From sequence record MZ726793.1: a stretch of 64,000 nucleotides of DNA. One strand, 5' to 3'. Below are positions 23,123 to 61,947 of this stretch, in pieces. The stretch is from Escherichia phage vB_EcoM_ASO2A. Under the pieces are notes generated by a model. That model searched no databases. It was not told where the DNA came from and saw only the letters and a list, made by a program, of their open reading frames with translations. The position numbers were made by a program, and so were the translations under genes. The first letter of the stretch is position 1, and every line of letters begins with the position of its first letter.

Positions 23123-23145
23123 AACCCGCTTCGGCGGGTTTTTTC
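23123..23145 (+). terminator. Rho-independent terminator (UUCG loop)
   Basis: CCCGC-TTCG-GCGGG followed by TTTTTT. Confidence 0.65.
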
Positions 23146-23440: not shown

Positions 23441-23472
23441 GAAAAGGCACCCACTTGGGTGCCTTTGTTTTA
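23441..23472. terminator. Bidirectional rho-independent terminator
   Basis: GGCACCC-ACTT-GGGTGCC flanked by AAAA and TTTGTTTT, between converging gene blocks. Confidence 0.65.
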
Positions 23473-23742
23473 TTCTTCGTTAGATTGCGTCTCAGACGCG
23501 TTAAATTCGGTTTCAGTACAACTTGCTAGGTAACTTATATTTTGCATCACTACAACTACAGGTGTTTGAAGTTTATCTTCTAGCCCCGCAGCCACTTGAG
23601 CCAAGGCATTATCAATATTTGATTTCCTAACGCCTGTTCCATGTCCTGTTGCCAAGTAAAGATTACCTTCCCCTTTTTGTGTAGCATTAGCAAAGTAGTA
23701 AACGTAATGTGCAAGGTAGTAATCACGGATTTCTTCAGTCAT
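23470..23742 (-). CDS. hypothetical protein
   Basis: 90-aa ORF; SD AGGAG; last gene of the SIR2 operon. Confidence 0.5.
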   Translation of the reverse strand: MTEEIRDYYLAHYVYYFANATQKGEGNLYLATGHGTGVRKSNIDNALAQVAAGLEDKLQTPVVVVMQNISYLASCTETEFNASETQSNEE

Positions 23743-23785
23743 TTTATTCTCCTAATAAGAAAGGGGCCGAAGCCCCTTGAGTGGT

Positions 23786-24586
23786 TTATTTGTTTAAGTG
23801 GTCTTCGACCATTTTAATGAAACCTTCATTGCTGAAGGCTGTTGCAGCTTTTTCTCGGTAAACAAAAACTCCACGATCTTCATAGAGAAGTGTTTCTTCG
23901 TAATTAACTCCAGGGTTAACTACAACCATTTTTGTCCCGATATTAAGAGCAGGAAAAAGCTCCCAGTTAAAATTGATAACTTGATTAGAGCAACCCACTA
24001 CAATCACCATATCTTGAGCCGTCAAGCCGTCTAAGATGTGGTACATATCGTTATACAATGGGGCAGTCTCCCCAAAGAACACTACATTGGGCTTCACATA
24101 CTTGTAATCATCCACATCGATAGCAGCATAGCCAACATCTTTGATGATTCTATTGTCTACGATCACTTCAGGCAGGAAGCCGTGAACATGTAGAACATCT
24201 TCATGAACAACACCCGCTTGTTCCAGAAGATCATCTACGTTTGTCGTGATGTTGATAACACGATCACAGCCGTACTCTTGAAACCATTCCGCGATCTGGT
24301 AATGCGCAGCGTTAGGAGACACACTATCCATCTCTACGCGACGTTTATTGTAGAAGTCATGAGTTTTACGGTAGAGGTTGTATCCCTCTGCATCTAATCC
24401 ACCAACAGCGCCAGGAACACACTGTTCTTGCTGGTAGCCAGCACGGAAATTGAAAATGTCACACACTTCAGAAAGGTCGTATTCATCCCACAAAGCTTTA
24501 CCACTTTCTGTGTCAGTGCGGAAAGTACGAATACCGCTATCGGCGCTTAAGCCAGCGCCGCTAATCACTATTAATCGTCTTGGCAT
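23786..24586 (-). CDS. SIR2-family protein (sirtuin-like NAD-dependent enzyme)
   Basis: 266 aa; N-terminal VISGAGLSADSGIRTFR matches the sirtuin GAGIS..SGIP.FR motif. Confidence 0.65.
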   Translation of the reverse strand: MPRRLIVISGAGLSADSGIRTFRTDTESGKALWDEYDLSEVCDIFNFRAGYQQEQCVPGAVGGLDAEGYNLYRKTHDFYNKRRVEMDSVSPNAAHYQIAEWFQEYGCDRVINITTNVDDLLEQAGVVHEDVLHVHGFLPEVIVDNRIIKDVGYAAIDVDDYKYVKPNVVFFGETAPLYNDMYHILDGLTAQDMVIVVGCSNQVINFNWELFPALNIGTKMVVVNPGVNYEETLLYEDRGVFVYREKAATAFSNEGFIKMVEDHLNK

Positions 24587-25056
24587 TCTTCCTCCTCAAA
24601 TGGATCATAAGAATCGTACTCGTAAGTATCATCTTCTGAAAATTCTACTTCGAAATAAATATCAAACTCTGCAAACAGACGTAGGATGTTAGACATGCTG
24701 TAATAATTATCGTAGGCAGATTCAGCTTCATAGTAAACATAAAGCAAATGGTTAGCCTTATCATCTTCCAAATATTTCCCGTCTGCATACGCATAGTCTG
24801 CATATGCTTTACCTGCATCTTCCACAAGAGAACGATCAAGCAGAGTAGGAAATGGTTTCTCTTTTTCTTTTAGTTTGCTCACCAACCAATGTGCAATATC
24901 ATTCCATTCTGCATCCATACCACTAAAGCAACTTGCTTCTTCTCCAAAAGAAGCTTCTCCTAAATCGCCACTAATACGAACAACATTAGATGAACTATAG
25001 CCACACGTTTCACAATCAGAGTAACTATTATGCACATTGACATTTACTTGAAACAT
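24571..25056 (-). CDS. hypothetical acidic protein
   Basis: 161 aa, strongly acidic C-terminus. Confidence 0.5.
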   Translation of the reverse strand: MFQVNVNVHNSYSDCETCGYSSSNVVRISGDLGEASFGEEASCFSGMDAEWNDIAHWLVSKLKEKEKPFPTLLDRSLVEDAGKAYADYAYADGKYLEDDKANHLLYVYYEAESAYDNYYSMSNILRLFAEFDIYFEVEFSEDDTYEYDSYDPFEEEECQDD

Positions 25057-25114
25057 ATTCCCTCCTATAAAAGAAAAGCCCCCTGAAACAGGAGGCTTTG
25101 TTCAGATATCGGCA

Positions 25115-25768
25115 CTATACCAGACTTTGAAGGTATTTGTCAAGTGCTTCTTGATCACCTTGACAAACATAGCAACGGAAGTCTTGAGCAGAAGGTTCTT
25201 TGTCCTCGTCCCAATCCCAATAGACAGTACCTTTATAGCGTGAGCCTGGGAACTCGAAGTATGCCACATGAGTAATATGGTGTGGGCCACCCCAAAACTC
25301 TGTAAAAGTAAATTGAGGATACGCTGCTTTAACTGTATTTTCAAACCAAGTTTTACGATCTAATGCTTCGTTTATAAAATAAGCATGGCGTTCCATTTCA
25401 TCCCACGTTTTCCAGACACTTCTCTCATCAGGAGAAAAGACAAGCCATTCTGGAAGGTAGAGAGTGTCATAGTAATCATCATATTCGATCTCGGAGACGC
25501 ACGAAGCTGACTCCTCCAGTTTTGAGTAATCAAAAGCAGAATATACCCACCAACCATCTTCCAGTAACGCTTTGATAGGGACGAAGCCTTTATCAGCATA
25601 TTGATCGAATTGTTTGACACGGTGGCTTGTGCAGTCTTCAAACTCACATTCTAAACGATATGCACCTTTTCGACGAGCCTCAAGACCGTGTGCACTGAAA
25701 ATAACAACACTTCCTTCACCATCATTACGATCTACTTGATAAGCAACTACTTGTTTTGAATTTGACAT
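25115..25768 (-). CDS. hypothetical protein
   Basis: 217-aa ORF. Confidence 0.5.
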   Translation of the reverse strand: MSNSKQVVAYQVDRNDGEGSVVIFSAHGLEARRKGAYRLECEFEDCTSHRVKQFDQYADKGFVPIKALLEDGWWVYSAFDYSKLEESASCVSEIEYDDYYDTLYLPEWLVFSPDERSVWKTWDEMERHAYFINEALDRKTWFENTVKAAYPQFTFTEFWGGPHHITHVAYFEFPGSRYKGTVYWDWDEDKEPSAQDFRCYVCQGDQEALDKYLQSLV

Positions 25769-26451
25769 TATTTCTCCTTATCTAGAAGATTGTTAGACAA
25801 AAACACTGCACGAGCAAAACCACGTGCGGTTAAGGATCTAAGTTGTTTTGTTTTTGCACTAGCTCCACCTAAGCTTTTCCAACCCCAGAAGCAGCCTATA
25901 TGATCTACTGGTTTCTTCACTGGTTGAACAAAACCATTGCCGTGCCAAATACAAGTTTTCTTTGTATACCCATCACGGGTAGGCATTTTAGGATGAAAGC
26001 TTCCTTCCTCTTCAAACAAATACCCACCATACTCATAAGGATCAAAGTAAAAATCGGGTTTACGCCATAAGGTTGAAAGTTTACCTACTGGGTTCTCAAT
26101 CATCCAAGGAACATTATATTTGTTACCCAAAGCTTCCACTACACGAATATTAGCTAAAGCTTCATCTAGTTCCTCTGTGCTACGTTCGTGTTTGCTACCA
26201 CTACCTGCTAACATAGTGCAAGGTGGAAATCCAAAAATAATATCGGGTTTAGGTATCCCATGATCTTCAGGGTTGAATGTAGAATCTATCCAGGCATTCA
26301 CATAGGTTATGTTTGGGTGCTCCATCCTAACCTCGTATTTACCGTGATCCCCTTCATCAGCGTTTACACAAAAACACTTGTGACCTGCTTCGGCATAACG
26401 TAACACCATAATCCCAGATCCGTCAAACATAGACAAAACTGTTTTACTCAT
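25768..26451 (-). CDS. C5-cytosine methyltransferase-like protein (compact)
   Basis: 228 aa from ATG 26451; motifs FDGSG, GFPPC and ENPVG in canonical order. Confidence 0.5.
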   Translation of the reverse strand: MSKTVLSMFDGSGIMVLRYAEAGHKCFCVNADEGDHGKYEVRMEHPNITYVNAWIDSTFNPEDHGIPKPDIIFGFPPCTMLAGSGSKHERSTEELDEALANIRVVEALGNKYNVPWMIENPVGKLSTLWRKPDFYFDPYEYGGYLFEEEGSFHPKMPTRDGYTKKTCIWHGNGFVQPVKKPVDHIGCFWGWKSLGGASAKTKQLRSLTARGFARAVFLSNNLLDKEK

Positions 26452-26857
26452 TACCCCTCCATTCAAGACAAGCCATAACTTTACGCCAATCACTTTCTGT
26501 AAGAAAAATCTCGTTTGCTTTCTTCCACAAATCTAAATCGTGAAGGGTTGGAATACGATATGTTAGTTCACAGAATCTATGCTCTTCTTCTGTAATATAA
26601 CCAAAATGCAGAGCCACATCGTGAAACCAACACCAACCATGCATCTCTCGAACAACATGGTCATGCTGAGACATTGTTTTATGCCGTAAACCTAACCAAC
26701 AAGGAACAGATACTTTAGTAGTCTTTAATCTGTGATCAACAGTATTAGAGTATTCAATAATAGCTGTCAGTTTCAATCGTGCTTTTTCTAAATCCTCATG
26801 GGTCACTTTGAAATAACTTTCTGAAAGATATCCACACATATTAATAACCTCCTTCAA
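26444..26857 (-). CDS. hypothetical protein
   Basis: 137-aa ORF. Confidence 0.5.
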   Translation of the reverse strand: MKEVINMCGYLSESYFKVTHEDLEKARLKLTAIIEYSNTVDHRLKTTKVSVPCWLGLRHKTMSQHDHVVREMHGWCWFHDVALHFGYITEEEHRFCELTYRIPTLHDLDLWKKANEIFLTESDWRKVMACLEWRGNE

Positions 26858-27782
26858 AAGGCTTAACTACATGTTGATTAGCTTTAAAACGTTCAACATA
26901 GTCGTTTTCGCCCATGTTTTCATATAGCTTAGTAACAACATAAAAGTTTTCCCAAGCATATTCCCTAAACCAACCACTAGTGATGGATGTGCAGACTTTA
27001 GATAAAGCCATTATAAAACTTTGCTTAGGGGTTGGACCTCCGATCTCTTCACCGAAAGGAATTTGTGAACGTTCCAAAGCCAAAACACACGCTTCTTCAT
27101 AAACACCTAACAGGCGCACATGTTTTGGTTGAGCAAAAAACTTTTCTTTGCTGGTCATAACTTCACTTCCATCTTTCATATAAGATTTATATGCTGGAGC
27201 ATCCATTAACGCGATTGCTTCATGGATAGAATCATGATCATAAACATAGGGAACCTCGTCACCTTTAAAGAAGTCTTTACTTTTTACGTTTAAGTTCGGA
27301 TGAGAGTAAGTGTATGTTTCTTTCTCACGTAACTCATAAATACTCTTAAGATTTTCTGGGATCTTTGCGCCCAGTGACCGCATGAAATGAATATCTTTCA
27401 TAGTTTTAAAGAAGTGAGGACTATCCTTTTTAAAACGATGACTCATTTTAAGAAGGTAGAGCACATCTAAAGGAGCAACAACATGTCCAGCGTAAGTTCG
27501 ACGAACATCATCAGAATCTTCACAATAACTAATCAAAGCTTCTGTGCTATCTCCTTGAGAAGCAATATCATATTCCAAATGTGCACCAGCTATCATTTTG
27601 ACGTGGCCTTTGTTCCTTTTACGTTCTACAAGTTCAACAAACTCGTCTTGAGAGAACATTTTTGATAATTCTTCCCACTCTTGTTCTGTACACAGGTAAT
27701 CTAAATCTACACAAGGGCGATACAAGTCTTTTCCCATGTCCATAGCATGAATTTGTAATGCACGGCTACCAATTAACACCAT
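26841..27782 (-). CDS. hypothetical protein (possible nucleotidyltransferase fold)
   Basis: 313 aa; weak N-terminal GS...DLD pattern; first gene of the operon. Confidence 0.45.
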   Translation of the reverse strand: MVLIGSRALQIHAMDMGKDLYRPCVDLDYLCTEQEWEELSKMFSQDEFVELVERKRNKGHVKMIAGAHLEYDIASQGDSTEALISYCEDSDDVRRTYAGHVVAPLDVLYLLKMSHRFKKDSPHFFKTMKDIHFMRSLGAKIPENLKSIYELREKETYTYSHPNLNVKSKDFFKGDEVPYVYDHDSIHEAIALMDAPAYKSYMKDGSEVMTSKEKFFAQPKHVRLLGVYEEACVLALERSQIPFGEEIGGPTPKQSFIMALSKVCTSITSGWFREYAWENFYVVTKLYENMGENDYVERFKANQHVVKPFEGGY

Positions 27783-27840
27783 AATATTTCTCCTCTATTG
27801 GTTGATAGGTTAAGTTTATCAAGCTTCCAGATTCCTGTCA

Positions 27841-27864
27841 ATAAAAAACCCGCCGAAGCGGGTT
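27841..27864 (-). terminator. Rho-independent terminator (UUCG loop)
   Basis: On minus strand CCCGC-UUCG-GCGGG then UUUUUU; the T-run overlaps the -35 of the SIR2-operon promoter. Confidence 0.6.
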
Positions 27865-27872
27865 ATTATTTA

Positions 27873-28145
27873 CTAACACATTGAGGAAGAAGAGATCCAA
27901 ACACCTCTTGTGGTTAAACCATTTTCATCCAACTCTACACCATAATCTTCACAAATGAAATCAATATAGTGATCTGCGGCTGGCGTTCCTGTAGGGTAAT
28001 AAGTTTCTCCGTTACCGTAGTCACCTATCCAAGCTTGTTCCTGAAACTGTTCACAGAGTTCTTCAATTTCCTTACGAAACTTTCTTTGTGCTTGTTCCAT
28101 CTCTTTAACTTTCTTTTTTATCAGCAGTTCGCCTTCAGACTCCAC
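27873..28145 (-). CDS. acidic small protein, paralog family C (C-terminal W-SSS-C)
   Basis: 90 aa, GTG start after SD AAGGAG; ends GVWISSSSMC. Confidence 0.5.
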   Translation of the reverse strand: MESEGELLIKKKVKEMEQAQRKFRKEIEELCEQFQEQAWIGDYGNGETYYPTGTPAADHYIDFICEDYGVELDENGLTTRGVWISSSSMC

Positions 28146-28154: not shown

Positions 28155-28373
28155 TTAACAGCTACTACTGTGCCAAACGCCTTGAGAATTAACGACGAAA
28201 CCATCATCACCTTCACCATAACAAGAAGAGGATTGCCAATCTTCAAAACAGATTGCGTCATCTTCTAAGCTAAGACCAAAACCAGCATCTTCGGCTTCTT
28301 TTGTAAGTTCGTCCACTAAAGCCATAATAGCTTGGGCTTTTTCAGTTAATTCTTCAATGTTACGATAACTCAT
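28155..28373 (-). CDS. acidic small protein, paralog family C
   Basis: 72 aa from ATG 28373; SD GAGGAG; ends GVWHSSSC with an internal WQSSSC. Confidence 0.55.
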   Translation of the reverse strand: MSYRNIEELTEKAQAIMALVDELTKEAEDAGFGLSLEDDAICFEDWQSSSCYGEGDDGFVVNSQGVWHSSSC

Positions 28374-28653: not shown

Positions 28654-28851
28654 TTAACAACTTAAAGAAGATGGATGCCAATTTGTTCCAGTATTCTCAT
28701 TTTCATCTTCTGGATCATAATAACCACCCATCCCATATTCAGGAGAGAAACTGAAACCTTCACCAGTCTCGTCTGCTAACTGTTCTGCTTCCGCTAAAGC
28801 CTCATAAGCTGCTTTTACGGCTTCTTCTACTGTTTTAAACTTGGTCGTCAT
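28654..28851 (-). CDS. acidic small protein, paralog family C
   Basis: 65 aa; ends NWHPSSLSC. Confidence 0.55.
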   Translation of the reverse strand: MTTKFKTVEEAVKAAYEALAEAEQLADETGEGFSFSPEYGMGGYYDPEDENENTGTNWHPSSLSC

Positions 28852-33834: not shown

Positions 33835-34527
33835 TTAAATAGCGGTTCCTTCGAAATCCGCCACATTTACGAGATTAATATTTTCAGATTTAGAAGTCAA
33901 GTTGTTTTCTGCAACAGATTTTTCTTCAGTATCCGCCTCGTTACCTGCCACGTTACGAGGTTCTTCTTCACCGTAGGGATTACCGAATTTCAAAAGATTG
34001 ATCAATTCTTCTTTGGAGAAGTTTTCTAAATCATCGTCTGTTAATTCAATAATCTCGTCTTGTTCTTCAATAAATGTTTCACCACCAGAAAAAGCATCTC
34101 GCTTTTTAGCTACTTCCATAGCTTGTTCTGGTGTTGCCCCTGCGTCAAGAGCAGCTAAAGCAAAGTCTGACCCACTTCCTACTGCATAATATTCTTCATC
34201 AATCGGATATGCACGTGTTGGGTTGTTACCTTCGTGCAAGAAAATACGTCCGTCTGGATGAACAACAAGTGCAATAAACTCTTCATCTTCTTTATCTGGA
34301 TCAGAGTGAATCATCAAACCAGGGACAGCATCACGTGCTGCTTCGCACTGTAGATTTTGTTCAAACCATTGAAAGAAAGAAAGCACGGAGGTCAGACGAC
34401 CAGCACCACCTACAAGGTAATCTCCAATTTTTCGGACCTTTTTGAAATTAATAGAATCTACACGTCCACCAAAAGTTACCTTACCGTCACTCAAAATCTT
34501 ATTTTTGGTTGCAATAATTGTCGTCAC
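33835..34527 (-). CDS. HslV-like (proteasome beta-type) threonine peptidase homolog
   Basis: 230 aa; N-terminal MTTI, LVGGAG and AVGSGSDFALAA resemble HslV; long acidic C-terminal extension. Confidence 0.45.
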   Translation of the reverse strand: MTTIIATKNKILSDGKVTFGGRVDSINFKKVRKIGDYLVGGAGRLTSVLSFFQWFEQNLQCEAARDAVPGLMIHSDPDKEDEEFIALVVHPDGRIFLHEGNNPTRAYPIDEEYYAVGSGSDFALAALDAGATPEQAMEVAKKRDAFSGGETFIEEQDEIIELTDDDLENFSKEELINLLKFGNPYGEEEPRNVAGNEADTEEKSVAENNLTSKSENINLVNVADFEGTAI

Positions 34528-36521: not shown

Positions 36522-36782
36522 TTACTCCGCAATTTGAGCCATGAGATCACGCAGTTCGGTAAAACCGCCTACGTATGTTACCTCCCCGTTCACTTCGGAC
36601 AGAATTTGTGGAAATGTGCGTGGAGGAACTCCGGTAAGATCAACAACTGTTTTAGTCATTGATTCTAAATCATAGTCTTGATCAAGACTTAAATATTCAA
36701 ACTGTTTATTGCGCATGGTTAATAGTTGTTTTGACATTTCACAAAATTGACAGTTAGGTTTACCAAAAATTACAAATTCCAT
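36522..36782 (-). CDS. glutaredoxin/thioredoxin-like protein
   Basis: 86 aa; N-terminal CQFC redox motif; next to the rml and nrd genes. Confidence 0.65.
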   Translation of the reverse strand: MEFVIFGKPNCQFCEMSKQLLTMRNKQFEYLSLDQDYDLESMTKTVVDLTGVPPRTFPQILSEVNGEVTYVGGFTELRDLMAQIAE

Positions 36783-37624
36783 TACCTCTCCTTATTAAGT
36801 AATACTGCTAAAGACTGTTCAATACCTTTATTTAAATCTGATTTTGTAAGATAGTGACTGGTTACTAGTTGTGACTTCACCGGACGTGCTGCTGGAGCAT
36901 TATAGGTTGAAGCTGATACCGCCGATATCTTAACAGGTTCTGGCATCTGTGTCAAGATCTTTTCCGCAAACTCCGCCCAAGAAATAAGATGGCTTCCTGC
37001 AAAATGGTAAGTCTTAACAGACCTTGACCAACCTGTTTTTAATACTTCAAAAATAGCTTCTGCTAAATCTGGAGCATATGTTGGACAAGAGAACTGATCA
37101 GCAACAATAATAAAATCACGTTGTCCATCATTATAGCGAGACAACATGGTTTTTAGAAAGTTATTTCCAAATTCGCTATATACCGAGGCTGTTCGAATAA
37201 TATATGCATTTGGGTTAACTCCTCGCACCATTTTTTCACCAAGTTCTTTCGTATACCCATAATTGTTTATTGGGTTAGGTGTAGTATCTTCAAAAATAGG
37301 ATGAGAATAATTAAAAATATAGTCTGTAGAAATATGCACAAAATCAATTTTAAGTTTGCTGCACACTGCCGCAATATTTGCAGGTCCATACGCATTAACA
37401 GCCAAAGCAGTAGCAAAATCATGTTCTGCTTTATCTACAGCCGTATAAGCGGCGCAATTAATAACACCATCTACATAATCTTCAATAATAGCGTTTCGCA
37501 CAGCTTCAAAATTTGTAATATCTACACGTTCTTTAGGATAAATTAAAGATACATTTGAAGGAGCCACTTTACGTAAAGCTTGTCCCAGTTGTCCATTACC
37601 GCCCAATACCAGATATGTTAGCAT
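36782..37624 (-). CDS. rmlD: dTDP-4-dehydrorhamnose reductase
   Basis: 280 aa; N-terminal LVLGGNGQLGQAL Rossmann motif; last gene of the rml operon. Confidence 0.8.
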   Translation of the reverse strand: MLTYLVLGGNGQLGQALRKVAPSNVSLIYPKERVDITNFEAVRNAIIEDYVDGVINCAAYTAVDKAEHDFATALAVNAYGPANIAAVCSKLKIDFVHISTDYIFNYSHPIFEDTTPNPINNYGYTKELGEKMVRGVNPNAYIIRTASVYSEFGNNFLKTMLSRYNDGQRDFIIVADQFSCPTYAPDLAEAIFEVLKTGWSRSVKTYHFAGSHLISWAEFAEKILTQMPEPVKISAVSASTYNAPAARPVKSQLVTSHYLTKSDLNKGIEQSLAVLLNKER

Positions 37625-38184
37625 ACACCCTCGCTACGTAACTGTTGAAAAGATTTAGCCATTGCATCTTTTGTTGATAGAATAGGTTTAAAACCTTCGT
37701 CAAAAATCATATCGAAGCCCCAATCGATCCCTATATCAGGATCATCCCAACGTAAACTTTGTTCACTAGAAGGGTCGTATGGAGTTGTGCATTTGTATTC
37801 AAAGATAGCATCCATACTCAAAACTATAAAACCATGAGCCAAACCAGGCGGAAGCCAAAACTGCGTATGGTGTCGTGCACGAAGAACAACACCGTCCCAA
37901 GCACCGTAAGTTGGACTATCTTTACGTAAATCTACAGCGAAATCCAATACTTCCCCACTTACACAACGAACTAGCTTACCTTGCGGGTTATTTGTTTGAA
38001 AGTGCATTCCTCGCAAAACACCGAAGTTTGATTTAGACATGTTATCTTGAACGAAAGTTTGTCTACCAATAATATCTTCGTATTTTTGTTCATTATATGT
38101 TTCTAGAAAGAAACCACGATCATCTTTATAAACGTCTGGTTTGATAATTACCGCACCTTCAATTTTTGTTTTTTCTACTTTCAT
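37618..38184 (-). CDS. rmlC: dTDP-4-dehydrorhamnose 3,5-epimerase
   Basis: 188 aa from ATG 38184 (ATGA overlap with rmlA stop); cupin-type RmlC motifs DDRGFF and RGMHFQ. Confidence 0.8.
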
Positions 38185-39059
38185 TTTCTCTCCGCTAATT
38201 TGAGTAGGTATTGCCCGTACTCTGTTTTCTTCAGTGAGTTTCCATGATACACCAAAGTCTCTAAAGAAATCCACCCTTTTTTGAAAGCAATTTCTTCCAG
38301 GCACGCAATCTTCAATCCTTGACAGTTCTCAATAGTCTGCACGAATTGACCAGCTTCCATCAGACTGGCGTGTGTTCCTGTGTCAAGCCAAGTAAATCCT
38401 CGTCCGAGAACTTCCACTTGTAACTTCCTGTCTTCTAGGTAGCTGCGATTGATATCAGTGATCTCCAGTTCTCCACGCGCGGAAGGGGTTACTTCTAATG
38501 CACGTTGAATAACAGAGTTATCATAGAAATACAAACCTGTGACAGCATAATCTGATTTAGGATTTTCAGGTTTCTCTTCAATAGAAATAGCTTGACGATT
38601 ACTCCCAAATTCAACCACACCGAATCGTTCAGGATCTTTCACCAAATACCCGAAAATACAAGCTCCGCCCCAAACATCTACCATCTCACTGGCGTTAATC
38701 AGTAGTTTACCAAAGCTTTGTCCGAAGAATAGGTTGTCACCTAAAATAAGAGCAACAGAGTCTTCTCCGATAAAATCTTTACCTATGATGAAAGCTTCCG
38801 CAAGACCTCGTGGCTCGGATTGGATTGCGTAAGTGAGTTTTATCCCAAACATAGACCCATCTCCGAGAAGATACTCAAAGTCTTCCTGATCACCTGGTGT
38901 GGTGATGATTAAAATATCCTTAATGTCAGCCAACATCAATACCGATAAAGGGTAGTAGATCATGGGTTTGTCATACACAGGGAGCAATTGCTTGCTCACA
39001 CTGCGTGTTACCGGATGAAGGCGGGTTCCGCTTCCTCCCGCCAAAATAATACCTTTCAT
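38181..39059 (-). CDS. rmlA: glucose-1-phosphate thymidylyltransferase
   Basis: 292 aa; [18 protein letters not shown]...[17 protein letters not shown] is the RmlA signature. Confidence 0.9.
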
Positions 39060-39067
39060 AACCCTCC

Positions 39068-40060
39068 TTAAATTTTCTCACTCCACCATTGAGGGTTGTT
39101 TAAGTACCATTCAATCGTTGAGTAGAGATCTTGTTCAAATGTAGAGTTTGCACTCCAGCCCAGTTCAGACTCTATCTTAGAAGGATTGATTTCATAACGC
39201 AAGTCATGTCCTTTACGATCTTCAACAAAAGTTATCAAGTTGGAAGAAGGGTAGGTTACTGCTTCTGGATGTACAGTATCCATATAGTCACAAACCATAT
39301 AGATGATCTCCATATTGGTTTTGGGATTACGTGTTCCAACATTATACGTTTGACCTGGTTCTCCACCTGTTGCCACTTGAAGAATAGCTCGCGCATGATC
39401 CTCAACAAAAAGCCAGTCTCGCACCTGGTCGCCTTTACCATACACCGGAATCTCTTTATTCGTCAAGATACTTGTGATGATTTTTGGGATCAGCTTTTCT
39501 GGATGTTGATAAGGCCCAAAGTTATTGGAGCAGTTGGTTATCACAACAGGCAAATCGTAGGTGCGGTGCCAAGCTTTCACAAGATGGTCAGATGCCGCCT
39601 TAGACGCACTGTATGGGCTTGAAGGGGCATAAGCTGTCTCTTCGGTAAAAGGAACGCCAGAGTCTGCCATATCGCCGTACACTTCGTCTGTGGAGACGTG
39701 TACGAACATCTTCAGTTTATTTTTTGGGAGGAGCCTTGCAGCTTCCAATAAATTGTATGTACCAATAATATTGGAGTCAATGAAAACTCGTGGATTCTTG
39801 ATAGAATTATCCACATGACTCTCTGCCGCTAAGTGAATGATGAAATCGGGATTGCACTCTACTACTAAACTTTTGACCTGGGTTTCGTTTGCCAAATCTG
39901 TCATGCTTAGTTTAATGTGAGTGATATCGCCTACATTCTCAATATCTGCTGCATAGCCCATCTTATCAACGACAAAAACTTCGTTATTAGGATCTTGACA
40001 AAGAGAGCGCACCACGGCACTCCCAATAAAACCAAGACCACCTGTTACCAGATAGCGCAT
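39068..40060 (-). CDS. rmlB: dTDP-glucose 4,6-dehydratase
   Basis: 330 aa; [21 protein letters not shown]-binding N-terminus typical of RmlB. Confidence 0.9.
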
Positions 40061-51803: not shown

Positions 51804-52529
51804 TTACTTGTTAATAATACCTGCAATATTAGGTTTGACAAAGGTCGATGGTTTCATGATCTTACCTTTATCATCAAAGAACACATACACTTTCTGTTTT
51901 TCATTATAAACAGCATGAACACCAGTGTATGCCCCTTCTGGACGATTGGCATTTCGTTCTTCAATTGCAGCGCATTCTTGTGCAATGGCTGAATCGATAT
52001 CCGAAGTTTTCCAAGTTTTCAGCAACTGTTGTTTAGTTGGATACTTGGAATCATTACTTTTCAATACCTCTTTAATAACTTTCTTTTCTGGATATTTTGA
52101 ACGGATTAGAGTGTCACGAGACATACGCATAATACCAGCAGCCATTAGTGCCATTTGAACTGGCTCTGTAAATGTTTGTTCCAAAGCATCAAAATCAGTA
52201 TACACAGTTGGAGTAAAAACATCGCCTACAGCATAGTCCAAGAAATTCATCGTATGTTCTTCACCAAAGAACATGTAAGTCAGATAACTGGATACTACAA
52301 AAATATCCGCTGCTGCATCCAAGAGTTCTACATGATCGTTTACTTTCGCGGCTGTTTCATACTCTTTAAGCTCTTCACGAACGAACCCGATTTGGGACAT
52401 AAATAACTCTTGAGTGAATTCAGGTTGTTCACCACCTCGTGCTTTGGCATTCCAATCAATTACGTGCTTTGCTGCATTTTTGAAAAATTCAGTATCGAAT
52501 TTAATATCTTTAAAAAAATTCTCGATCAT
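51804..52529 (-). CDS. hypothetical protein
   Basis: 241-aa ORF. Confidence 0.5.
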   Translation of the reverse strand: MIENFFKDIKFDTEFFKNAAKHVIDWNAKARGGEQPEFTQELFMSQIGFVREELKEYETAAKVNDHVELLDAAADIFVVSSYLTYMFFGEEHTMNFLDYAVGDVFTPTVYTDFDALEQTFTEPVQMALMAAGIMRMSRDTLIRSKYPEKKVIKEVLKSNDSKYPTKQQLLKTWKTSDIDSAIAQECAAIEERNANRPEGAYTGVHAVYNEKQKVYVFFDDKGKIMKPSTFVKPNIAGIINK

Positions 52530-52538
52530 TATAACTCC

Positions 52539-52721
52539 TTATTTAAAATAGCTTTCTAGAAAGTTGCTAATATTTACTACAGACTCACCCATGTAAATCC
52601 CTGCGAAACCGAAAACAAGCATACGTGGAATATTGAAATACCATTTATCTGCCGGAAAAGATGCCAGAATTACAATAGCAATTGCTATCAACATCATAAG
52701 AATTGTTGCTAAAATTATCAT
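52539..52721 (-). CDS. small membrane protein
   Basis: 60 aa; two hydrophobic segments. Confidence 0.45.
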   Translation of the reverse strand: MIILATILMMLIAIAIVILASFPADKWYFNIPRMLVFGFAGIYMGESVVNISNFLESYFK

Positions 52722-52774
52722 AAAAATGCCTCCAGGTATTTTTCACAATGATAAGCTAAGAACATTTTTCCTCC

Positions 52775-53902
52775 TTATTCTGCTGGTTCCCAAGTGCCTG
52801 GGATCATTTCTCGAATACGAACACCAACAGGTTTTGTTGGAATACCTTCATCTGAAAATTCTTCATACTCTATTTCAACGAACTGATTAATCAAGGTAGA
52901 AGCATTCTCTGCTTTACGATAATTGATAGTCTCATGAGCATCTTTACGCATTAAGAATTCGACTACTTTACCATTTTCCATCTCGCCTGTCAACACTCCA
53001 TCACCATTTTTATCACTTTTTGAATTTATTACTTTAACTTCAAGCGTATGACGAGGCTTACGTTTAATAACATCATAAGAACGTTTATCAAATTCGTAAA
53101 CTCCGTGAGCATTACGATATACTACACCTTCAGCTTTCTCAAGTAAAGCTTTTTCATAGAAAGCATCAAACTGTTCTTGGTTTTCAATATACTCTGTATG
53201 AACTACACAAATAAGCTCATCAAGACCATAATCCTCCACTACTGCCTTAAGAGCAGTAAGAACATCAACACGTTTTTCAAACGGTAGATCTGGAACTGGA
53301 ATATCGTATACGTAATAGTTCAGCAAAGGTGTATTTGCATTATGCTTCTTCCAGGCACTGTTAATTTGTTGTAGACTAAGGACACCTAACCCAGCAAACA
53401 CTTCACCATCAAGAGGATGACCAACAACTTCACTAATAAAGTTTGGAATACCTTTCCAATGAGGTGGCAGGTTATACACTTCCCCAGCTTTTGATAAACA
53501 CTCCCCTTTCATGTTAATCATAGAACGTAACCCGTTCAGTTTGTATTGTGCATAACCAGGGAACACAACCCTTTCAGGATAATCTTTATAATCCTGGCAT
53601 TTCATTGGTGTGGAAGGAACATGGTTTTCAGCTTCTTCTTTTGTTTTATAATAGCCATTCTTTAACTGTTTTGTCCATTTGGCAAAAGCTTCAAGTTCAG
53701 CTTGTTCTTCCGGTGTTGTTTCATTGGAACGACCAATGTTTTTTGCTTCTGCTGTATAAGATTTTTCTGTGATTTTTCCACCTACCCTTCCATGAGCTAC
53801 AGTAACAACTGCACCATCTGTATACACTGTCCACTGTTTAAGTTTTCCTTTTGAATCTTTACCATACAGCGTTTGATTTGTTTGTTGCATTAGTCCTCCC
53901 AT
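52775..53902 (-). CDS. ATP-dependent DNA ligase
   Basis: 375 aa; nucleotidyltransferase motifs KLNGLR, LDGEVF, EGVVYR and a downstream KxK. Confidence 0.65.
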   Translation of the reverse strand: MGGLMQQTNQTLYGKDSKGKLKQWTVYTDGAVVTVAHGRVGGKITEKSYTAEAKNIGRSNETTPEEQAELEAFAKWTKQLKNGYYKTKEEAENHVPSTPMKCQDYKDYPERVVFPGYAQYKLNGLRSMINMKGECLSKAGEVYNLPPHWKGIPNFISEVVGHPLDGEVFAGLGVLSLQQINSAWKKHNANTPLLNYYVYDIPVPDLPFEKRVDVLTALKAVVEDYGLDELICVVHTEYIENQEQFDAFYEKALLEKAEGVVYRNAHGVYEFDKRSYDVIKRKPRHTLEVKVINSKSDKNGDGVLTGEMENGKVVEFLMRKDAHETINYRKAENASTLINQFVEIEYEEFSDEGIPTKPVGVRIREMIPGTWEPAE

Positions 53903-54111
53903 TTAAAAACTGAAATTTTCAATCTGTTACACACTTCATCCAAATCTGCGTCGAGTAACGTTGTAGATGTTGCCAACATATAATCAATGCTTGTGAAACC
54001 TTGCCCTTTGGCATAGTCAAACATATCTTCATACATATCTTCAAGATCACCGTCATCAAAAGTAGCTAGAAAATCCTCGTCCCCACTACGAACATAAAAT
54101 GCAGTACTCAT
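53890..54111 (-). CDS. hypothetical protein
   Basis: 73-aa ORF. Confidence 0.5.
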   Translation of the reverse strand: MSTAFYVRSGDEDFLATFDDGDLEDMYEDMFDYAKGQGFTSIDYMLATSTTLLDADLDEVCNRLKISVFKWED

Positions 54112-54296
54112 TCATCTTCATCCCAAGATTCAAAAACGCAGCAATCATCGGTTTCTATAATACCAACACGTCCGCAGGTATTGCAAGTGATTTTATCACC
54201 GTAGAATAAATAATTTTTATCACCCTCTGTGTTTACAGAGATTTCATGACTGCCACAAGGACAAGTCAGCCAATCAACAACGATATCTTTTTTCAT
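54108..54296 (-). CDS. zinc-ribbon protein
   Basis: 62 aa; CPCG...CNTCG. Confidence 0.5.
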   Translation of the reverse strand: MKKDIVVDWLTCPCGSHEISVNTEGDKNYLFYGDKITCNTCGRVGIIETDDCCVFESWDEDE

Positions 54297-54305
54297 AATC
54301 CCTCC

Positions 54306-54632
54306 TTAAGCGTTCAGTTCGTTGTTGAGTTCGTAAATCTCTTCTTGAAGAGCATCAATCTCTTCCTCCAAACGGGAGATCTCTTCTTTTAGATATACCA
54401 TTTCTGATTCTTTCTCTTCTAACTCATTTTCAAATTTTACTTTATTCGCCTCATTTTCATAATGGAGTTCAGCGTAATCATCGCGCATTTGTTCAATAAG
54501 ATGAATCAGAGACAAGATGTAATTATCTCCCGTTTCATCACGCCATTCTTCACCGTGGCGGAGAACGGTAATTCGTCCAGTATCTTCATCTAAAATTGTC
54601 TCATATTTACGATCATCTGTATAAATCTGCAT
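54306..54632 (-). CDS. hypothetical coiled-coil protein
   Basis: 108 aa; E/L-rich heptad-like C-terminus. Confidence 0.5.
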   Translation of the reverse strand: MQIYTDDRKYETILDEDTGRITVLRHGEEWRDETGDNYILSLIHLIEQMRDDYAELHYENEANKVKFENELEEKESEMVYLKEEISRLEEEIDALQEEIYELNNELNA

Positions 54633-54641
54633 TATTACTCC

Positions 54642-55046
54642 TTATTGAAGTTTAAGTGAACCACGAAGACGTTTCTCTTGCTGATCACGAATATATTGTG
54701 GAACCTCGTGAATTGAATCATTACCGTGCCTATTTTCAACAACTAAAGAGATAACTTGATAACCAAACTCTTCAGCAAGAGTTAGATAAGGTTTAAGTTC
54801 TTTCTCTGTGGTTGAAGTGTTAGAAACAATAATCTTGTTAAGATTAGATGCCATAGCATCACGAACAATACTCTGACACCATGCGTGTGCTTTACCTACG
54901 TTTTCTGGCTTCCAATCGTAAACACCACTTTCTGTGTAATGATATTGATCTGCCTCACAGATAGGCCAATAACCTTCAGAAATAATTTCTGCTACTGTAG
55001 ATTTACCAGCACCTGAAACGCCACGTAAAATGATAAGTTGTTTCAT
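54642..55046 (-). CDS. P-loop polynucleotide kinase-like protein
   Basis: 134 aa; Walker A GVSGAGKST; directly downstream of the RNA ligase. Confidence 0.55.
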   Translation of the reverse strand: MKQLIILRGVSGAGKSTVAEIISEGYWPICEADQYHYTESGVYDWKPENVGKAHAWCQSIVRDAMASNLNKIIVSNTSTTEKELKPYLTLAEEFGYQVISLVVENRHGNDSIHEVPQYIRDQQEKRLRGSLKLQ

Positions 55047-55979
55047 TTATCCTCCAAAGAAGTTTTCGATTTTTTCACGTCGCTCCTGCTGATTTAAAGC
55101 AGCCCATTGAGTCTTCGTAAAATTATTTCGAATCCATTCTAACAAAGCGTAATATTCTTCGTCAACAATTTGTTTGGCATTTTTTGGATTATCCCAAATC
55201 AGATCCCACTTTTTATCTCCACCACGCATAAGAAACTTCTTAGTAAGATAGTGTGGTGATTTAATTTTTAAAAGTAAGTTGAACGGATAGTTTGTTTCAC
55301 GAACTACAAATCCTTCGTGTTTACAATGTTTAGACATTTCAACAACATCTGAAAACTTAACCATTGGATGAACTTCAGGACGCTTAAATTTGGTGACAGA
55401 AGCAATTCCATCAAGAGCACCTTCAGGTAACATAAAACTTGTCCCATCAGGATTTTGAATTCTGGCACCAATTAAGTATGCACCTGGTTCTTCTTCGACA
55501 ATATGCGGATCAGAAGGATCACAGATTTCAAAAAGGAAAGTTGCTTTTGCACTCTCTATCCATTTGATGAAATGTTCTATGTCATCACACTCTGAAATAA
55601 TATGATTCTTTGCAATACTTGCAAAATCTGATTCAAGGCTTCCTGTTGTCGATACAATAAGTTGACCTTTATATACACCTACAGAGGCCATAAAACCATT
55701 TACTTTACGAACCACATCTACAAATTCATCCGCTGGTAGATCTGTGCCATTCTCAAAACGATTAAAAATCTTAGTGAAAGGCCAAATAACAACATTGTCA
55801 TCATCGTCAACAACGATTCCGCGACATTCTAGAAGACGAGAATCAATGTTCCACAGGTTATCCCAGAAAACTTTGTTCTTATACTTAAGAACAGATAGAC
55901 CAGAATACTCTCCTTCTTTATATGTTTTCTTATGAACTAAACCTTTTTCAACCAAATCGTCGCAATTAAATTTAGCCAC
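55047..55979 (-). CDS. RNA ligase (T4 Rnl1-like)
   Basis: 310 aa; LECRGIVV, KIFN and KVNGF...STTGS align with T4 RnlA ALECRGIMF, KFFN and KEDGSL...SKGS. Confidence 0.65.
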   Translation of the reverse strand: MAKFNCDDLVEKGLVHKKTYKEGEYSGLSVLKYKNKVFWDNLWNIDSRLLECRGIVVDDDDNVVIWPFTKIFNRFENGTDLPADEFVDVVRKVNGFMASVGVYKGQLIVSTTGSLESDFASIAKNHIISECDDIEHFIKWIESAKATFLFEICDPSDPHIVEEEPGAYLIGARIQNPDGTSFMLPEGALDGIASVTKFKRPEVHPMVKFSDVVEMSKHCKHEGFVVRETNYPFNLLLKIKSPHYLTKKFLMRGGDKKWDLIWDNPKNAKQIVDEEYYALLEWIRNNFTKTQWAALNQQERREKIENFFGG

Positions 55980-55980
55980 A

Positions 55981-56532
55981 TTACTCTCCTTTGATTATTT
56001 TGTGATGGTCTACAGTTACGATATCTCGTTTACTCATCATAGAAATTATCTCATCAAAATGTAAGATTTTTCCGTGTGCATCCCAACCCACATCTAACAT
56101 TTTACCATAAGCTTCATCAGGGAAAGATCCGTGGGAATGCCCGTGTAGCATGATTGATCCACGACCTTGCTTATTCCAGGAGGCCATAGGGTAATGGCTT
56201 AAGACGAAGAACAGCTTCTGATATTTCACTTCGTCATAATACACCACTTCTCCATACTCTGCAAGCACTTCTCGGTGTTTGCTGTAATCATGGTTCCCAA
56301 CACAATAAGTGATATCCCCTTGGAGGCGGGAAGCAATCTTACGGGTATCTTCTTCAGTCCCGAAACAGAAGTCACCCAAATGCCACATCTTGACACCTGG
56401 ACTCGTAGCGCATTTATTCCATGCTTCGATCAGTGCTTCTGTCATGTGGTCCATATCTTCCCACGGTCGATATTCAGGAGCAAACTCTCGTATACGTTTG
56501 TGCATAAAATGCAAATCACTTGTAATAAACAT
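55981..56532 (-). CDS. calcineurin-like metallophosphoesterase
   Basis: 183 aa; motifs DLHF, GDFCFG, GNHD, HGHSH. Confidence 0.7.
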   Translation of the reverse strand: MFITSDLHFMHKRIREFAPEYRPWEDMDHMTEALIEAWNKCATSPGVKMWHLGDFCFGTEEDTRKIASRLQGDITYCVGNHDYSKHREVLAEYGEVVYYDEVKYQKLFFVLSHYPMASWNKQGRGSIMLHGHSHGSFPDEAYGKMLDVGWDAHGKILHFDEIISMMSKRDIVTVDHHKIIKGE

Positions 56533-56888
56533 TAGTATAATCCCTCGCTAAATAGGTCACGATCATGACCATTACGTTCGTAGTCAATCTGGTCTGCGTG
56601 TTTTGCAATAATGTATGCATCTTCACGACTCCACCAATTGTAGTATTGATCAATAAAACCTTGATTGTTTGGAAGACAATGCACTTTATCAAGCACACCT
56701 GCTTCTTTCAATACATTCAATTGTGCTGATAATATAGGATTTGCATGTCGAACACAAGGAATAATTAACTCTTCACCATTTTTCAGAATATATTTATTCG
56801 CAGCACAGACGATAACACGTTGCGCATAATGACCCTCACCAATCCAGGTAAGAGGTTGGTAACAAATATTGTTTTCAATACCACTCAT
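56532..56888 (-). CDS. hypothetical protein
   Basis: 118-aa ORF. Confidence 0.5.
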   Translation of the reverse strand: MSGIENNICYQPLTWIGEGHYAQRVIVCAANKYILKNGEELIIPCVRHANPILSAQLNVLKEAGVLDKVHCLPNNQGFIDQYYNWWSREDAYIIAKHADQIDYERNGHDRDLFSEGLY

Positions 56889-56894
56889 TGTTTC

Positions 56895-57038
56895 CTAATC
56901 CTCCTCTCTTAAGTTATCCTCGATAAAACTAGTATCTGGAAGTAAAAGATCATTACTTGTGTCGGGCCAATCCTCTTCTTCTCGGTAGATAAAATAACCT
57001 TCGTCCTCTTCTTGTTCCGACCAAACCGAATGATGCAT
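56895..57038 (-). CDS. small acidic protein (47 aa)
   Basis: ORF below track cutoff; SD AAGGAGAG; its stop lies next to the SD of the following gene. Confidence 0.45.
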   Translation of the reverse strand: MHHSVWSEQEEDEGYFIYREEEDWPDTSNDLLLPDTSFIEDNLREED

Positions 57039-57047
57039 GTTCTCTCC

Positions 57048-57404
57048 TTAATAGTGCACACGAATCATTTTAATACCATAACGCAGCATGGATTCTTTTG
57101 CAAGCATGAATTTATCCCCAGCGGCTGGATTAGAAGTATGCACGAAAATGGTAGGTGAACCAAAGCAAGGTTTACCAAACGCCAGAAGTTCTTCCAGGCA
57201 CAGGAAAACATCATACCCATCTTGGTCAGAATCTTCACCCAAATCGTTGTCAAAATGCCACTCGTCTACAAAACGATAACCCTTCTGCACCTCATTCATG
57301 TAGCGAGAGGCAAGAAGTTCCTGTGATGTTTTAAACCAGATTGCATCTGGACAACCATAATCTTTTGGATCACGTAAATCATCAAGCCAAATAATAGTAC
57401 CCAT
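57048..57404 (-). CDS. hypothetical protein
   Basis: 118-aa ORF. Confidence 0.5.
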   Translation of the reverse strand: MGTIIWLDDLRDPKDYGCPDAIWFKTSQELLASRYMNEVQKGYRFVDEWHFDNDLGEDSDQDGYDVFLCLEELLAFGKPCFGSPTIFVHTSNPAAGDKFMLAKESMLRYGIKMIRVHY

Positions 57405-61156: not shown

Positions 61157-61231
61157 GGCCCTGTAGCTCAATGGGAGAGCTGTCGGCTCATAACCGATAG
61201 GTAGCTGGATCGAAACCAGCCAGGGCCACCA
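61157..61231 (+). tRNA. tRNA-Met (anticodon CAT)
   Basis: Manual cloverleaf: acceptor GGCCCTG/CAGGGCC, D-stem GCTC/GAGC, loop CTCATAA, T-arm GCTGG/CCAGC, encoded CCA. Confidence 0.8.
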
Positions 61232-61233
61232 AC

Positions 61234-61308
61234 GTCTTTATGGTGTAATGGATAGCACAGGAGTCTTCTAAACTCTTAGTCAAGGTTCGATTCCTTGTAA
61301 AGACACCA
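61234..61308 (+). tRNA. tRNA-Arg (anticodon TCT)
   Basis: Acceptor GTCTTTA/TAAAGAC, loop CTTCTAA, T-arm CAAGG-TTCGATT-CCTTG, CCA. Confidence 0.8.
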
Positions 61309-61503
61309 GAACATTTTAACATGAATTAGCTCAAGTGATTTGAACCCACTACTGATCATGGTGGCAGAGAATGAGGCAAGTATGTCAGACATTATAAACA
61401 AAGGCCACGGTTATATTAGAAGACATAAATGCTCGAAGAGCACCGTTCGTGGAGAACGGGGTTGGTGGAGTCACCATTCATGGTAAAATGTTTTAAAAAA
61501 CTA

Positions 61504-61533
61504 TTGACAACTAACATTATTTTATGTTAGATT
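61504..61533 (+). promoter_or_regulatory. sigma70-like promoter (ACTATTGACAA box) for tRNA transcription
   Basis: TTGACA, 17 nt, TTAGATT; tRNA-Ser begins about 9 nt downstream. Confidence 0.5.
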
Positions 61534-61541
61534 ATAAGTAT

Positions 61542-61632
61542 GGAAGGGCAAATCGACGTGGCGACGAAAACGGTCTTGAAAACCGCCGAGCTTGAAAGAG
61601 CCTTGGGAGTTCGACTCTCCCTCCTTCCGCCA
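61542..61632 (+). tRNA. tRNA-Ser (anticodon TGA), long variable arm
   Basis: Acceptor GGAAGGG/TCCTTCC, loop CTTGAAA, T-arm GGGAG-TTCGACT-CTCCC, CCA; D-arm atypical. Confidence 0.7.
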
Positions 61633-61637
61633 GATTA

Positions 61638-61723
61638 GGTAGATTGGTGAAATGGTAGCCACGACAGTTTGCTAAACTGTAGTCGGAAACGGCGTGTAGG
61701 TTCGAGTCCTACATCTACCGCCA
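61638..61723 (+). tRNA. tRNA-Ser (anticodon GCT), long variable arm
   Basis: Acceptor GGTAGAT/ATCTACC, arm ACAGT-TTGCTAA-ACTGT, 15-nt variable arm, CCA. Confidence 0.8.
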
Positions 61724-61853
61724 AGTTCTTTTTAATATAGCTTACTTTAGCAGAGTAAATCTTCGGCAAGTGGCGGTAACCACTTTACCGATAACTCATA
61801 GTTAGTGGTGTGAACACTGGCTATTTTAAAAAGAATTTAAATATTAGTATTTA

Positions 61854-61941: not shown

Positions 61942-61947
61942 AATTAA

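Follow-up and report, generated by a model that had tools for sequence, protein, structure and literature searches.

A probable patchwork of accessory-gene cassettes in a phAPEC8-like phage, with a phage-clade sirtuin, a compact Dcm-like methyltransferase and a predicted MenT-like nucleotidyltransferase

Class III sirtuins such as CobB and SIRT5 bind acidic acyl groups through a Tyr-x-x-Arg pair, and the SIR2 NADases of defense systems generally lack a zinc ribbon. MenT-type toxins nucleotidylate the 3′ ends of tRNAs, and the cytosine-C5 methyltransferase M.HhaI has roughly 80–100 residues where its target-recognition domain (TRD) lies. Among phage-encoded relatives, a sirtuin clade was predicted by Iyer, Burroughs, Anantharaman and Aravind in 2022 to remove RNA 2′-phosphates in the manner of KptA, from gene neighborhoods such as that of rV5 (PMC9503650). 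Dcm of the KarlJaspers-like phage K42, encoded by a compact gene of 711 bp, is reported in a preprint to make 5-methylcytosine (5mC) in the multicopy single-stranded DNA (msDNA) of retron Ec86 and to trigger Ec86; the modified base was detected by liquid chromatography–mass spectrometry, CCWGG specificity was proposed, and the C82A/E128A/K175A/K176A mutant was inactive (bioRxiv 10.1101/2023.08.16.553469). Relatives of all these enzymes lie close together in the seven-gene stretch considered here, positions 23,441–27,872 of a 64,000-nucleotide (nt) piece of Escherichia phage vB_EcoM_ASO2A (MZ726793.1), which as a whole is called the window below. With a probability of about 0.7, we read this 4.4-kb stretch as the promoter-distal end of a long leftward gene block, in which three hairpin-delimited cassettes of four, two and one genes hold accessory genes that came in independently of one another and evolve apart, and not as a single cooperating system. 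Three independent activities are the best-supported reading of its enzymes.

The window belongs to a Phapecoctavirus genome (phAPEC8-like; Stephanstirmvirinae), and the 4.5-kb region shares 99.9% identity with Escherichia phage PNJ1809-36 and 96% with phAPEC8. A search of a phage collection returned 126 matching records, 62 of which cover at least 80% of the region's length; at least 62 Phapecoctavirus records show all seven genes in synteny, and over 100 related phages conserve them. Outside this lineage the genes part company. When all seven proteins were compared by tblastn with seven loci from rV5-like, PVP-SE1, T5-like, Webervirus, Mosigvirus and Otagovirus phages, every locus contained only the gene that had been used to fetch it, the other six being absent. 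The sirtuin homologues of rV5-like, PVP-SE1 and T5-like phages thus have none of the other six genes within 4–6 kb, and the genes annotated around the sirtuin in a KVP40-like phage and in a jumbo phage are likewise unrelated. Record counts differ accordingly, with 979 for the sirtuin, 1487 for the methyltransferase and 734 for the nucleotidyltransferase versus 157 for the gene of a 217-amino-acid (aa) protein and 128 for that of a 161-aa protein, the last two being essentially confined to Stephanstirmvirinae.

The sister genus Justusliebigvirus displays the same slot in altered form. In phage muut, the order is a 131-aa-like gene, a 329-aa PF00145 methyltransferase (E 1.7e-43), the 217-aa gene, the 161-aa gene, an HNH-like gene, the sirtuin and the 90-aa gene (coordinates of interest in this locus, L013: 4235–5224 and 6544–7284). 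Since the nucleotidyltransferase is missing from the muut slot, it is dispensable there. A full-length PF00145 C5-methyltransferase takes the place of the compact Dcm, and an insertion, the HNH-like gene (246 aa; PF13392, E 1.1e-4, below the cutoff), separates the 161-aa gene from the sirtuin. The 131-aa protein has a 24%-identical homologue that also precedes the methyltransferase slot, and the 90-aa protein has a 46%-identical homologue at the same position in muut. In Justusliebigvirus a different enzyme keeps the slot's predicted methyltransferase function; the shared feature is lineage synteny.

The seven closely packed minus-strand open reading frames (ORFs) occupy 27782–23470 and are real genes, as each matches a PHROG family (E 6e-53 to 7e-126); their overlaps sort them into groups of four, two and one (Table 1). 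The initial annotation had described them as one operon, opened by a promoter overlapping the upstream terminator and closed by a bidirectional terminator. Both ends hold up. The upstream hairpin closes the preceding small-gene cassette, and its T-tract abuts the −35 hexamer of a promoter-like site that is identical in phAPEC8 and ESCO37, while the downstream hairpin, at about −19 kcal/mol on both strands, carries a terminator annotation in phAPEC8. The seven minus-strand genes also stand, but their union in a single uninterrupted operon, with one promoter and no internal terminators, does not, because two internal hairpins with T-tracts, an internal promoter-like site and the gene overlaps would together divide the unit into 4 + 2 + 1 genes. 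One internal hairpin, equal in strength to those at the boundaries, separates the 217-aa gene from the 161-aa gene; the other falls between the sirtuin gene and the 90-aa gene. The best promoter match of the region is the internal site, not the upstream one, and its hexamers are conserved in the window, phAPEC8 and ESCO37 despite variable nearby codons. Compared with shuffles, the region is enriched in terminator-like sites (12 vs 4.7 ± 1.8) and shows no enrichment in promoter-like ones (23 vs 19.1 ± 3.9). The hairpins are identical across the three close relatives aligned, and hence offer no compensatory changes to compare.

Table 1. Positions in the window of the seven genes and of the predicted transcription signals
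Feature	Position	Strand	Basis
313-aa protein, DUF7277 + DUF7275	26841..27782	−	Pfam
131-aa protein, phrog_16551; overlaps both neighbors	26444..26839	−	ORF calling, PHROG
227-aa compact Dcm-like DNA cytosine-C5 methyltransferase (predicted)	25768..26451	−	motifs, PHROG
217-aa acidic protein, phrog_8514	25115..25768	−	PHROG
161-aa highly acidic protein (pI 4.05), phrog_9509	24571..25056	−	PHROG
266-aa phage-clade sirtuin, phrog_2162 (E 6.6e-102)	23786..24586	−	PF02146, PHROG, CobB match
90-aa protein, phrog_15991; last gene of the block	23470..23742	−	PHROG
Upstream intrinsic-terminator-like hairpin, AACCCGCTTCGGCGGGTT + T6	27847..27864	−	CUUCGG loop, −14.8 kcal/mol, z −4.8
Sigma-70-like promoter (putative), TTGACA-17-TAAACT, extended −10 TG	27813..27841	−	consensus match only
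Internal promoter-like site, TTGACA-18-TATAGT, TG; inside 3′ end of 217-aa gene	25114..25143	−	11/12 consensus match
Internal terminator-like hairpin, 11 bp + UUUUCUUUU	25075..25099	−	−16.4 kcal/mol, z −3.9
Internal CUUCGG hairpin + UUUCUUAUU	23761..23778	−	−12.7 kcal/mol, z −1.8 (weaker support)
Bidirectional terminator hairpin	23443..23466	both	−18.5 and −19.0 kcal/mol, z −4.7 and −5.0

Alignment places the 266-aa protein in the phage sirtuin clade (T5 'Sir2-like protein', rV5 gp080-type), with intact NAD-binding and catalytic-His motifs. It scores 73.3 bits against PF02146 (cutoff 24; E 3e-20) and carries GAGLSxxSGIxTFR (GAGLSADSGIRTFR), FYNKRR (Y79-x-x-R82), TTNVDD, H135-G136, KPNVVFFGE and VGCSN. 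Identity amounts to 50–64% with the rV5-like, PVP-SE1 and T5-like members and to 40–41% with those of KVP40-like and jumbo phages, the motifs and the lack of a zinc ribbon being common to all; with the rV5_ev158 protein it is 50% over the full length, as expected of an rV5-type orthologue. Across eight aligned phage homologues, which represent six lineages and reach down to 40% identity, the invariant positions comprise GAG..SG..FR, FYN, T-x-N-V-x-D, HG, KP...F.E and one glycine of VGCSN; Y79 is likewise invariant, and the pair with R82 is kept in seven of the eight. No Cys lies between H135 and K165 in the window protein or the seven other members, whereas CobB has its zinc-ribbon Cys residues in the aligned segment. 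A 22-aa insert (approximately residues 50–72) is confined to the Stephanstirmvirinae sirtuins.

The closest solved relatives are CobB (1s5p, E 1.1e-15), Sir2Af2 and SIRT5. With CobB and human SIRT5, the window sirtuin shares GAGxSxxSGIxxFR, the catalytic His-Gly, FGE and G-x-S, but it lacks the Cys4 zinc module and reads TTNVD in place of TQNID. Its FYNKRR (FYNxRR in the clade) aligns with FYNARR of CobB, the stretch with the acidic-acyl-binding pair Tyr92/Arg95, so the Tyr-x-x-Arg signature of class III is present. The NCBIfam models for CobB-type deacylases are missed by a wide distance, with 98.3 bits at best versus a cutoff of 243 and 41–81 versus 221–395 for the others. The enzyme would spend NAD+ to move ADP-ribose onto an anionic acceptor, and two acceptors receive about equal weight: an acidic acyl-lysine, if host proteins are deacylated in the manner of CobB and SIRT5, or an RNA 2′-phosphate, if the role is the KptA-like RNA repair predicted by Iyer et al. 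(2022). Both candidate substrates can be assayed, for a clade present in about 1000 sequenced phages, T5-like ones included. Searches of the literature on phAPEC8 Sir2 and on phage or viral sirtuins found no experimental study of a phage sirtuin.

A counterpart of the neighborhood in which rV5's sirtuin sits is found elsewhere in the window (51840–57395, −), about 28 kb from the sirtuin gene. It is composed of a gp079-like gene, a phosphoesterase, RNA ligase 1, a gp077-like gene, an ATP-dependent DNA ligase and a gp081-like gene, and ten tRNA genes lie near it at 61157–63169 (+), with CCA encoded in 10/10.

To judge from its motifs and predicted fold, the 227-aa protein contains the whole catalytic core of a DNA cytosine-C5 methyltransferase but only a mini-loop in place of the TRD, and it belongs to the compact phage Dcm family. 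Its start is most likely the ATG at 26451, as in phAPEC8, PNJ1809-36 and the N-termini of homologues. The motifs are FDGSG (I), FPPCT (IV), ENPVG (VI), YTKKTC (VIII) and a IX-like RSLTARGFARAV; across 30 family members, I, IV (FPxCT), VI (ENPxG), VIII and the IX-like RSLTPRGFARAV are invariant or nearly so, and motifs I–IV align to M.HaeIII. At the TRD position there is only a loop of about 27 residues (approximately 173–199), between the strand of motif VIII and the C-terminal helices. The predicted fold is that of the catalytic domain, matching DNMT3B best (a DNA methyltransferase with a small TRD) and M.HhaI and M.HaeIII as well. Compared with the canonical enzymes (M.HhaI, M.HaeIII, DNMT3A/B, PF00145), the window protein lacks a TRD and a clear motif X, and in the compact family the residue preceding the catalytic Cys varies (P/D/S/Q), the Pro-Cys dipeptide not being conserved.

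The protein matches phrog_757 at E 6.7e-85, and its homologues, found among others in Webervirus, T1-like Drexlerviridae and Vequintavirus, usually adjoin helicase, primase or polymerase genes. KarlJaspers is a Hanrivervirus, and the four residues mutated in K42 Dcm are exactly present in its Tempevirinae homologues, the protein of Hanrivervirus vojen and the 711-bp Warwickvirus gene of Phunderstruck; they map to C78/E119/K164/K165 of the window protein at 53% identity. It is because these residues are conserved in the genus-mates and here that the window protein is filed in the compact Dcm family. Identity to the vojen and Phunderstruck enzymes is 49–53%, with the same motif set, and DNMT3 is the best structural match for both K42-type Dcm and the window protein. 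The latter differs in length (227 aa vs 234–236 aa), in the motif VIII–IX loop and in setting, lying in an accessory block, whereas the Drexlerviridae gene lies beside the replicative helicase. The enzyme would methylate phage (and host) DNA and so blunt cytosine-sensitive restriction, possibly at the cost of being sensed by retron Eco1-type systems. In BASEL, no simple link emerged between methyltransferase genes like these and restriction resistance. CCWGG is not avoided in the window (73 sites vs 63 ± 8.6 expected), a count that is uninformative on Dcm-type protection. The K42 link predicts 5mC in phAPEC8-like therapeutic phages, which retron Eco1-type defenses could possibly sense.

Two Pfam domains make up the 313-aa protein encoded at the head of the block, DUF7277 (residues 1–87) and DUF7275 (residues 107–297). 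In the predicted structure, a Pol-beta nucleotidyltransferase core, nearest in fold to MenT/AbiEii, is joined to a helical extension. The family counts 2208 database proteins at E ≤ 1e-5, and in 27 homologues (51–81% identity to the window protein) the Pol-beta signature G5, S6, D26, D28 and E70 is invariant, as is a C-terminal His/Asp cluster (H115, H123, D130, H161, H183, D184 and H187). The spacer in G-[GS] ... D-x-[DE] spans 19 residues, versus the usual 9–13. The AlphaFold model is confident (predicted local distance difference test score, pLDDT, 90.5) and most resembles MenT1, while its C-terminal helical 140–170 residues returned no structural match. Pfam searched to E 1 gave only DUF7275 and DUF7277, with no match to the AbiEii/DUF1814 or NTP_transf_2 profiles, and PADLOC gave no AbiE match. 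Because family-alignment profiles of this protein and of the methyltransferase found no match among PDB sequences, both are tied to known structures by fold comparison only.

With the MenT1, MenT3, MenT4 and AbiEii (DUF1814) toxins, the 313-aa protein shares the N-terminal G-S ... D-x-D and a later acidic residue, but it adds the helical DUF7275 half with its invariant His/Asp cluster, has no conserved antitoxin-like neighbor and is encoded by lytic phages. Going by the fold, it may add nucleotides to a hydroxyl acceptor, for which an RNA 3′ end is the most plausible candidate. A role in CCA addition or repair was rejected, all 10 phage tRNA genes of the window already encoding CCA. A toxin–antitoxin pair with the 131-aa protein, whose gene most likely starts at ATG 26839, was also considered and set aside: no 131-aa homologue lies beside the nucleotidyltransferase in the Mosigvirus or Otagovirus loci. 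A literature search for DUF7275 found no experimental work, and the MenT-like fold gives a first testable handle on a family that is widespread in large phages.

Variation is concentrated in three genes. The N-terminal two-thirds of the sirtuin (patch 23950–24580) shares 57–69% nucleotide identity with ESCO37, and parts of the 161-aa gene (24600–25100) and the middle of the 217-aa gene (25200–25400) share 66–84% with phAPEC8 or ESCO37, with flanks that are 97–100% identical between the window and these two phages. Such patches point to allele exchange at the sirtuin, 161-aa and 217-aa genes, or suggest diversifying selection. The 161-aa gene overlaps the start of the sirtuin gene by 16 nt. The four small acidic proteins may be lineage-restricted host-interaction factors.

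Several points weigh against a patchwork of separate genes. Stephanstirmvirinae keep the order of methyltransferase, 217-aa, 161-aa, sirtuin and 90-aa genes even where the type of methyltransferase is swapped, and this order, with the overlapping or abutting genes, leaves room for some functional coupling, e.g., of the 161-aa protein with the sirtuin. The hairpins may be RNA-stabilizing or leaky elements and not efficient terminators. The methyltransferase, sirtuin and nucleotidyltransferase activities are deduced from homology or predicted fold; the methyltransferase reaches 11.4 bits against PF00145 (cutoff 22; E 0.21), over its N-terminal third only, and its placement with K42 goes through genus-mates with identical residue numbering, the evidence for K42 activity being a preprint. 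In a rival reading, the seven genes are one cotranscribed module in which the three enzymes cooperate in anti-defense, superinfection exclusion or host modification. We consider such a module improbable: the strong boundary hairpins, the promoter-like site at the head, the tight packing, the synteny in at least 62 Phapecoctavirus records and the five-gene core persisting in Justusliebigvirus would all fit it, but the two internal hairpins and the internal promoter-like site, the solitary occurrence of each enzyme in other phage groups, the dispensable nucleotidyltransferase and the lack of any system found by PADLOC do not, and synteny among phages 92–99% identical in DNA reflects common descent and not functional coupling. 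The initial annotation had suggested a self-contained defense or anti-defense module around a SIR2 effector. This proposal is unsupported, since the sirtuin homologues of rV5-like, PVP-SE1, T5-like, KVP40-like and jumbo phages have unrelated neighbors (a pattern that the annotation itself had listed as refuting), the methyltransferase and nucleotidyltransferase are distributed independently, PADLOC gave no defense-SIR2 match, the nearest solved structures are the deacylases CobB and SIRT5, and terminator-like hairpins interrupt the unit. Host modification, which it also offered, suits the methyltransferase, which looks like an anti-restriction DNA methyltransferase, though not as the work of a self-contained module. 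Its observations on single proteins were largely accurate: the sirtuin motifs and the weak nucleotidyltransferase-like pattern of the 313-aa protein are both corroborated by the matches given above, and the C5-methyltransferase motifs with no room for a TRD are there, in a protein that is most likely of 227 aa instead of 228; its S-adenosylmethionine-binding and catalytic motifs are intact and invariant across the family, contrary to the loss of such residues that the annotation had listed as a second refuting sign. A role for the sirtuin in superinfection exclusion or host shut-off, as a toxic or NAD+-depleting effector like Thoeris ThsA, DSR, SIR2-HerA or SIR2-Argonaute, is very unlikely. 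With ThsA, DSR1/2, SIR2-HerA/Nezha and SIR2-APAZ it has in common the SIR2 Rossmann fold (NAD-binding motifs and catalytic His included), the NAD+ substrate and the absence of a zinc ribbon, and alleles of about 71–77% aa identity in otherwise near-identical genomes hint at conflict-driven exchange. However, its sole PADLOC match is a 38-residue stretch to PDC-S65 (E 4.7e-4), its sequence is nearer the deacylases CobB, Sir2Af2 and SIRT5, and the class III Tyr-x-x-Arg pair is retained; it has no sensor, SLOG, HerA or Argonaute partner and no conserved neighbor in the phage groups checked outside Stephanstirmvirinae, and its carriers include hundreds of strictly lytic phages, themselves in need of NAD+.

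Two further proposals reassign a single enzyme. In one, possible although we doubt it, the sirtuin is a KptA-like 2′-phosphotransferase that serves specifically in RNA (tRNA) repair alongside the phage's RNA ligase, phosphoesterase and kinase, and its companions in the block are unrelated cargo. The neighborhood argument published for rV5-like and Mydo-like phages (type 2 neighborhood; PMC9503650) is confirmed in rV5_ev158 and PVP-SE1, where the sirtuin adjoins RNA ligase 1 and a phosphoesterase; the window genome has the RNA-ligase cluster and 10 tRNAs, and the conserved Tyr/Arg pair could bind phosphate as readily as carboxylate. Yet in the window the sirtuin lies far from that cluster, its neighbors having no RNA ligase, cREC, kinase, MazG or phosphoesterase domains, and the neighbors in the T5-like and KVP40-like phages examined are unrelated to RNA repair. 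The Rnl1 family, with 609 records (15 named Salmonella phage and 175 named Pseudomonas phage), also differs markedly in phyletic pattern from the sirtuin, 289 of whose records are named Salmonella phage, and the literature search found no biochemical test of the proposal. In the other, quite unlikely, the compact methyltransferase is no DNA methyltransferase and acts on RNA or a nucleotide, or else needs the 131-aa or 217-aa neighbor as a separate recognition subunit. The short stretch between motif VIII and the IX-like helix, the subthreshold PF00145 score and the overlap of the gene with both neighbors are compatible with this, and split C5-methyltransferases exist, M.AquI being an example. 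Weighing more heavily on the side of DNA, a Hanrivervirus-type family member is reported to make 5mC in msDNA and to need C82/E128/K175/K176, all conserved here; a canonical DNA C5-methyltransferase fills the same Justusliebigvirus slot; and DNMT3B, the best fold match, is itself a DNA methyltransferase with a small TRD. The Webervirus, Hanrivervirus, Warwickvirus and Vequintavirus enzymes do without these neighbors, beside helicase, primase or polymerase genes, and a separate TRD subunit was rejected on the ground that neither candidate travels with the compact methyltransferase in these four other phage groups. More speculative, and given modest weight, is the idea that the sirtuin, the nucleotidyltransferase or both have a new nucleic-acid activity in phage–host conflict. 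This could be MenT-like tagging or repair of tRNA or other RNA 3′ ends, or removal of RNA 2′-phosphates by ADP-ribosylation, and not protein deacylation, in the Tyr/Arg pocket of the zinc-less sirtuin; the hypervariable 161-aa and 217-aa proteins would then be possible specificity or counter-defense partners.

Under the reading that we prefer, of separately acquired cassettes, the block is ordinary as a module. Every recognizable part falls in a known family, its exact sequences had been deposited before, and the sirtuin and the methyltransferase are annotated in GenBank/RefSeq (in relatives, as 'Sir2-like' and, in RefSeq, 'DNA methyltransferase'), which leaves an accessory-gene patchwork in a well-sampled genus. 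The remaining interest lies in the phage sirtuin clade and the DUF7277/DUF7275 nucleotidyltransferase.

Far from being an isolated island, the region closes a minus-strand gene block roughly 40 kb long, which converges with a plus-strand block of small early-type genes at the bidirectional terminator. The long block also encodes ribonucleotide reductase, thymidylate synthase, dTDP-rhamnose genes, PhoH, a lysozyme and a calcineurin-like phosphatase. The dTDP-rhamnose biosynthesis enzymes (RmlA/B/C/D-like) are encoded by four genes at approximately 36782–40060 (−), as annotated in PNJ1809-36, and in a lytic phage their possible roles include modification of DNA or of surface sugars. A 230-aa ORF at 33835–34527 (−) displays a weak N-terminal match to a proteasome subunit (PF00227, E 1.1e-5, 25.6 bits), in which no single stretch passes alone. 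In every search, several MG0656xx records ('Campylobacter phage A127, A12a, A145, A147 ...', labeled Campylobacter jejuni) matched E. coli phage genera at high identity (Phapecoctavirus, Vequintavirus and Drexlerviridae-like), which suggests that they are mislabeled or contaminated deposits.

The 18-nt upstream hairpin, AACCCGCTTCGGCGGGTT followed by T6, is present twice in identical form, at 27847–27864 (−) and at 23123–23140 (+) in the plus-strand block, with a chance expectation of none, and looks like a reused terminator module. Just upstream of the seven genes, three small acidic ORFs (27873–28145, 28155–28373 and 28654–28851, −) end in W-x(1,2)-S-S-x(0,3)-C-stop, with the C-termini …VWISSSSMC, …VWHSSSC (plus an internal WQSSSC) and …NWHPSSLSC. 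The motif occurs in no other ORF of the window in all six frames, which suggests that the three are tandem paralogues.

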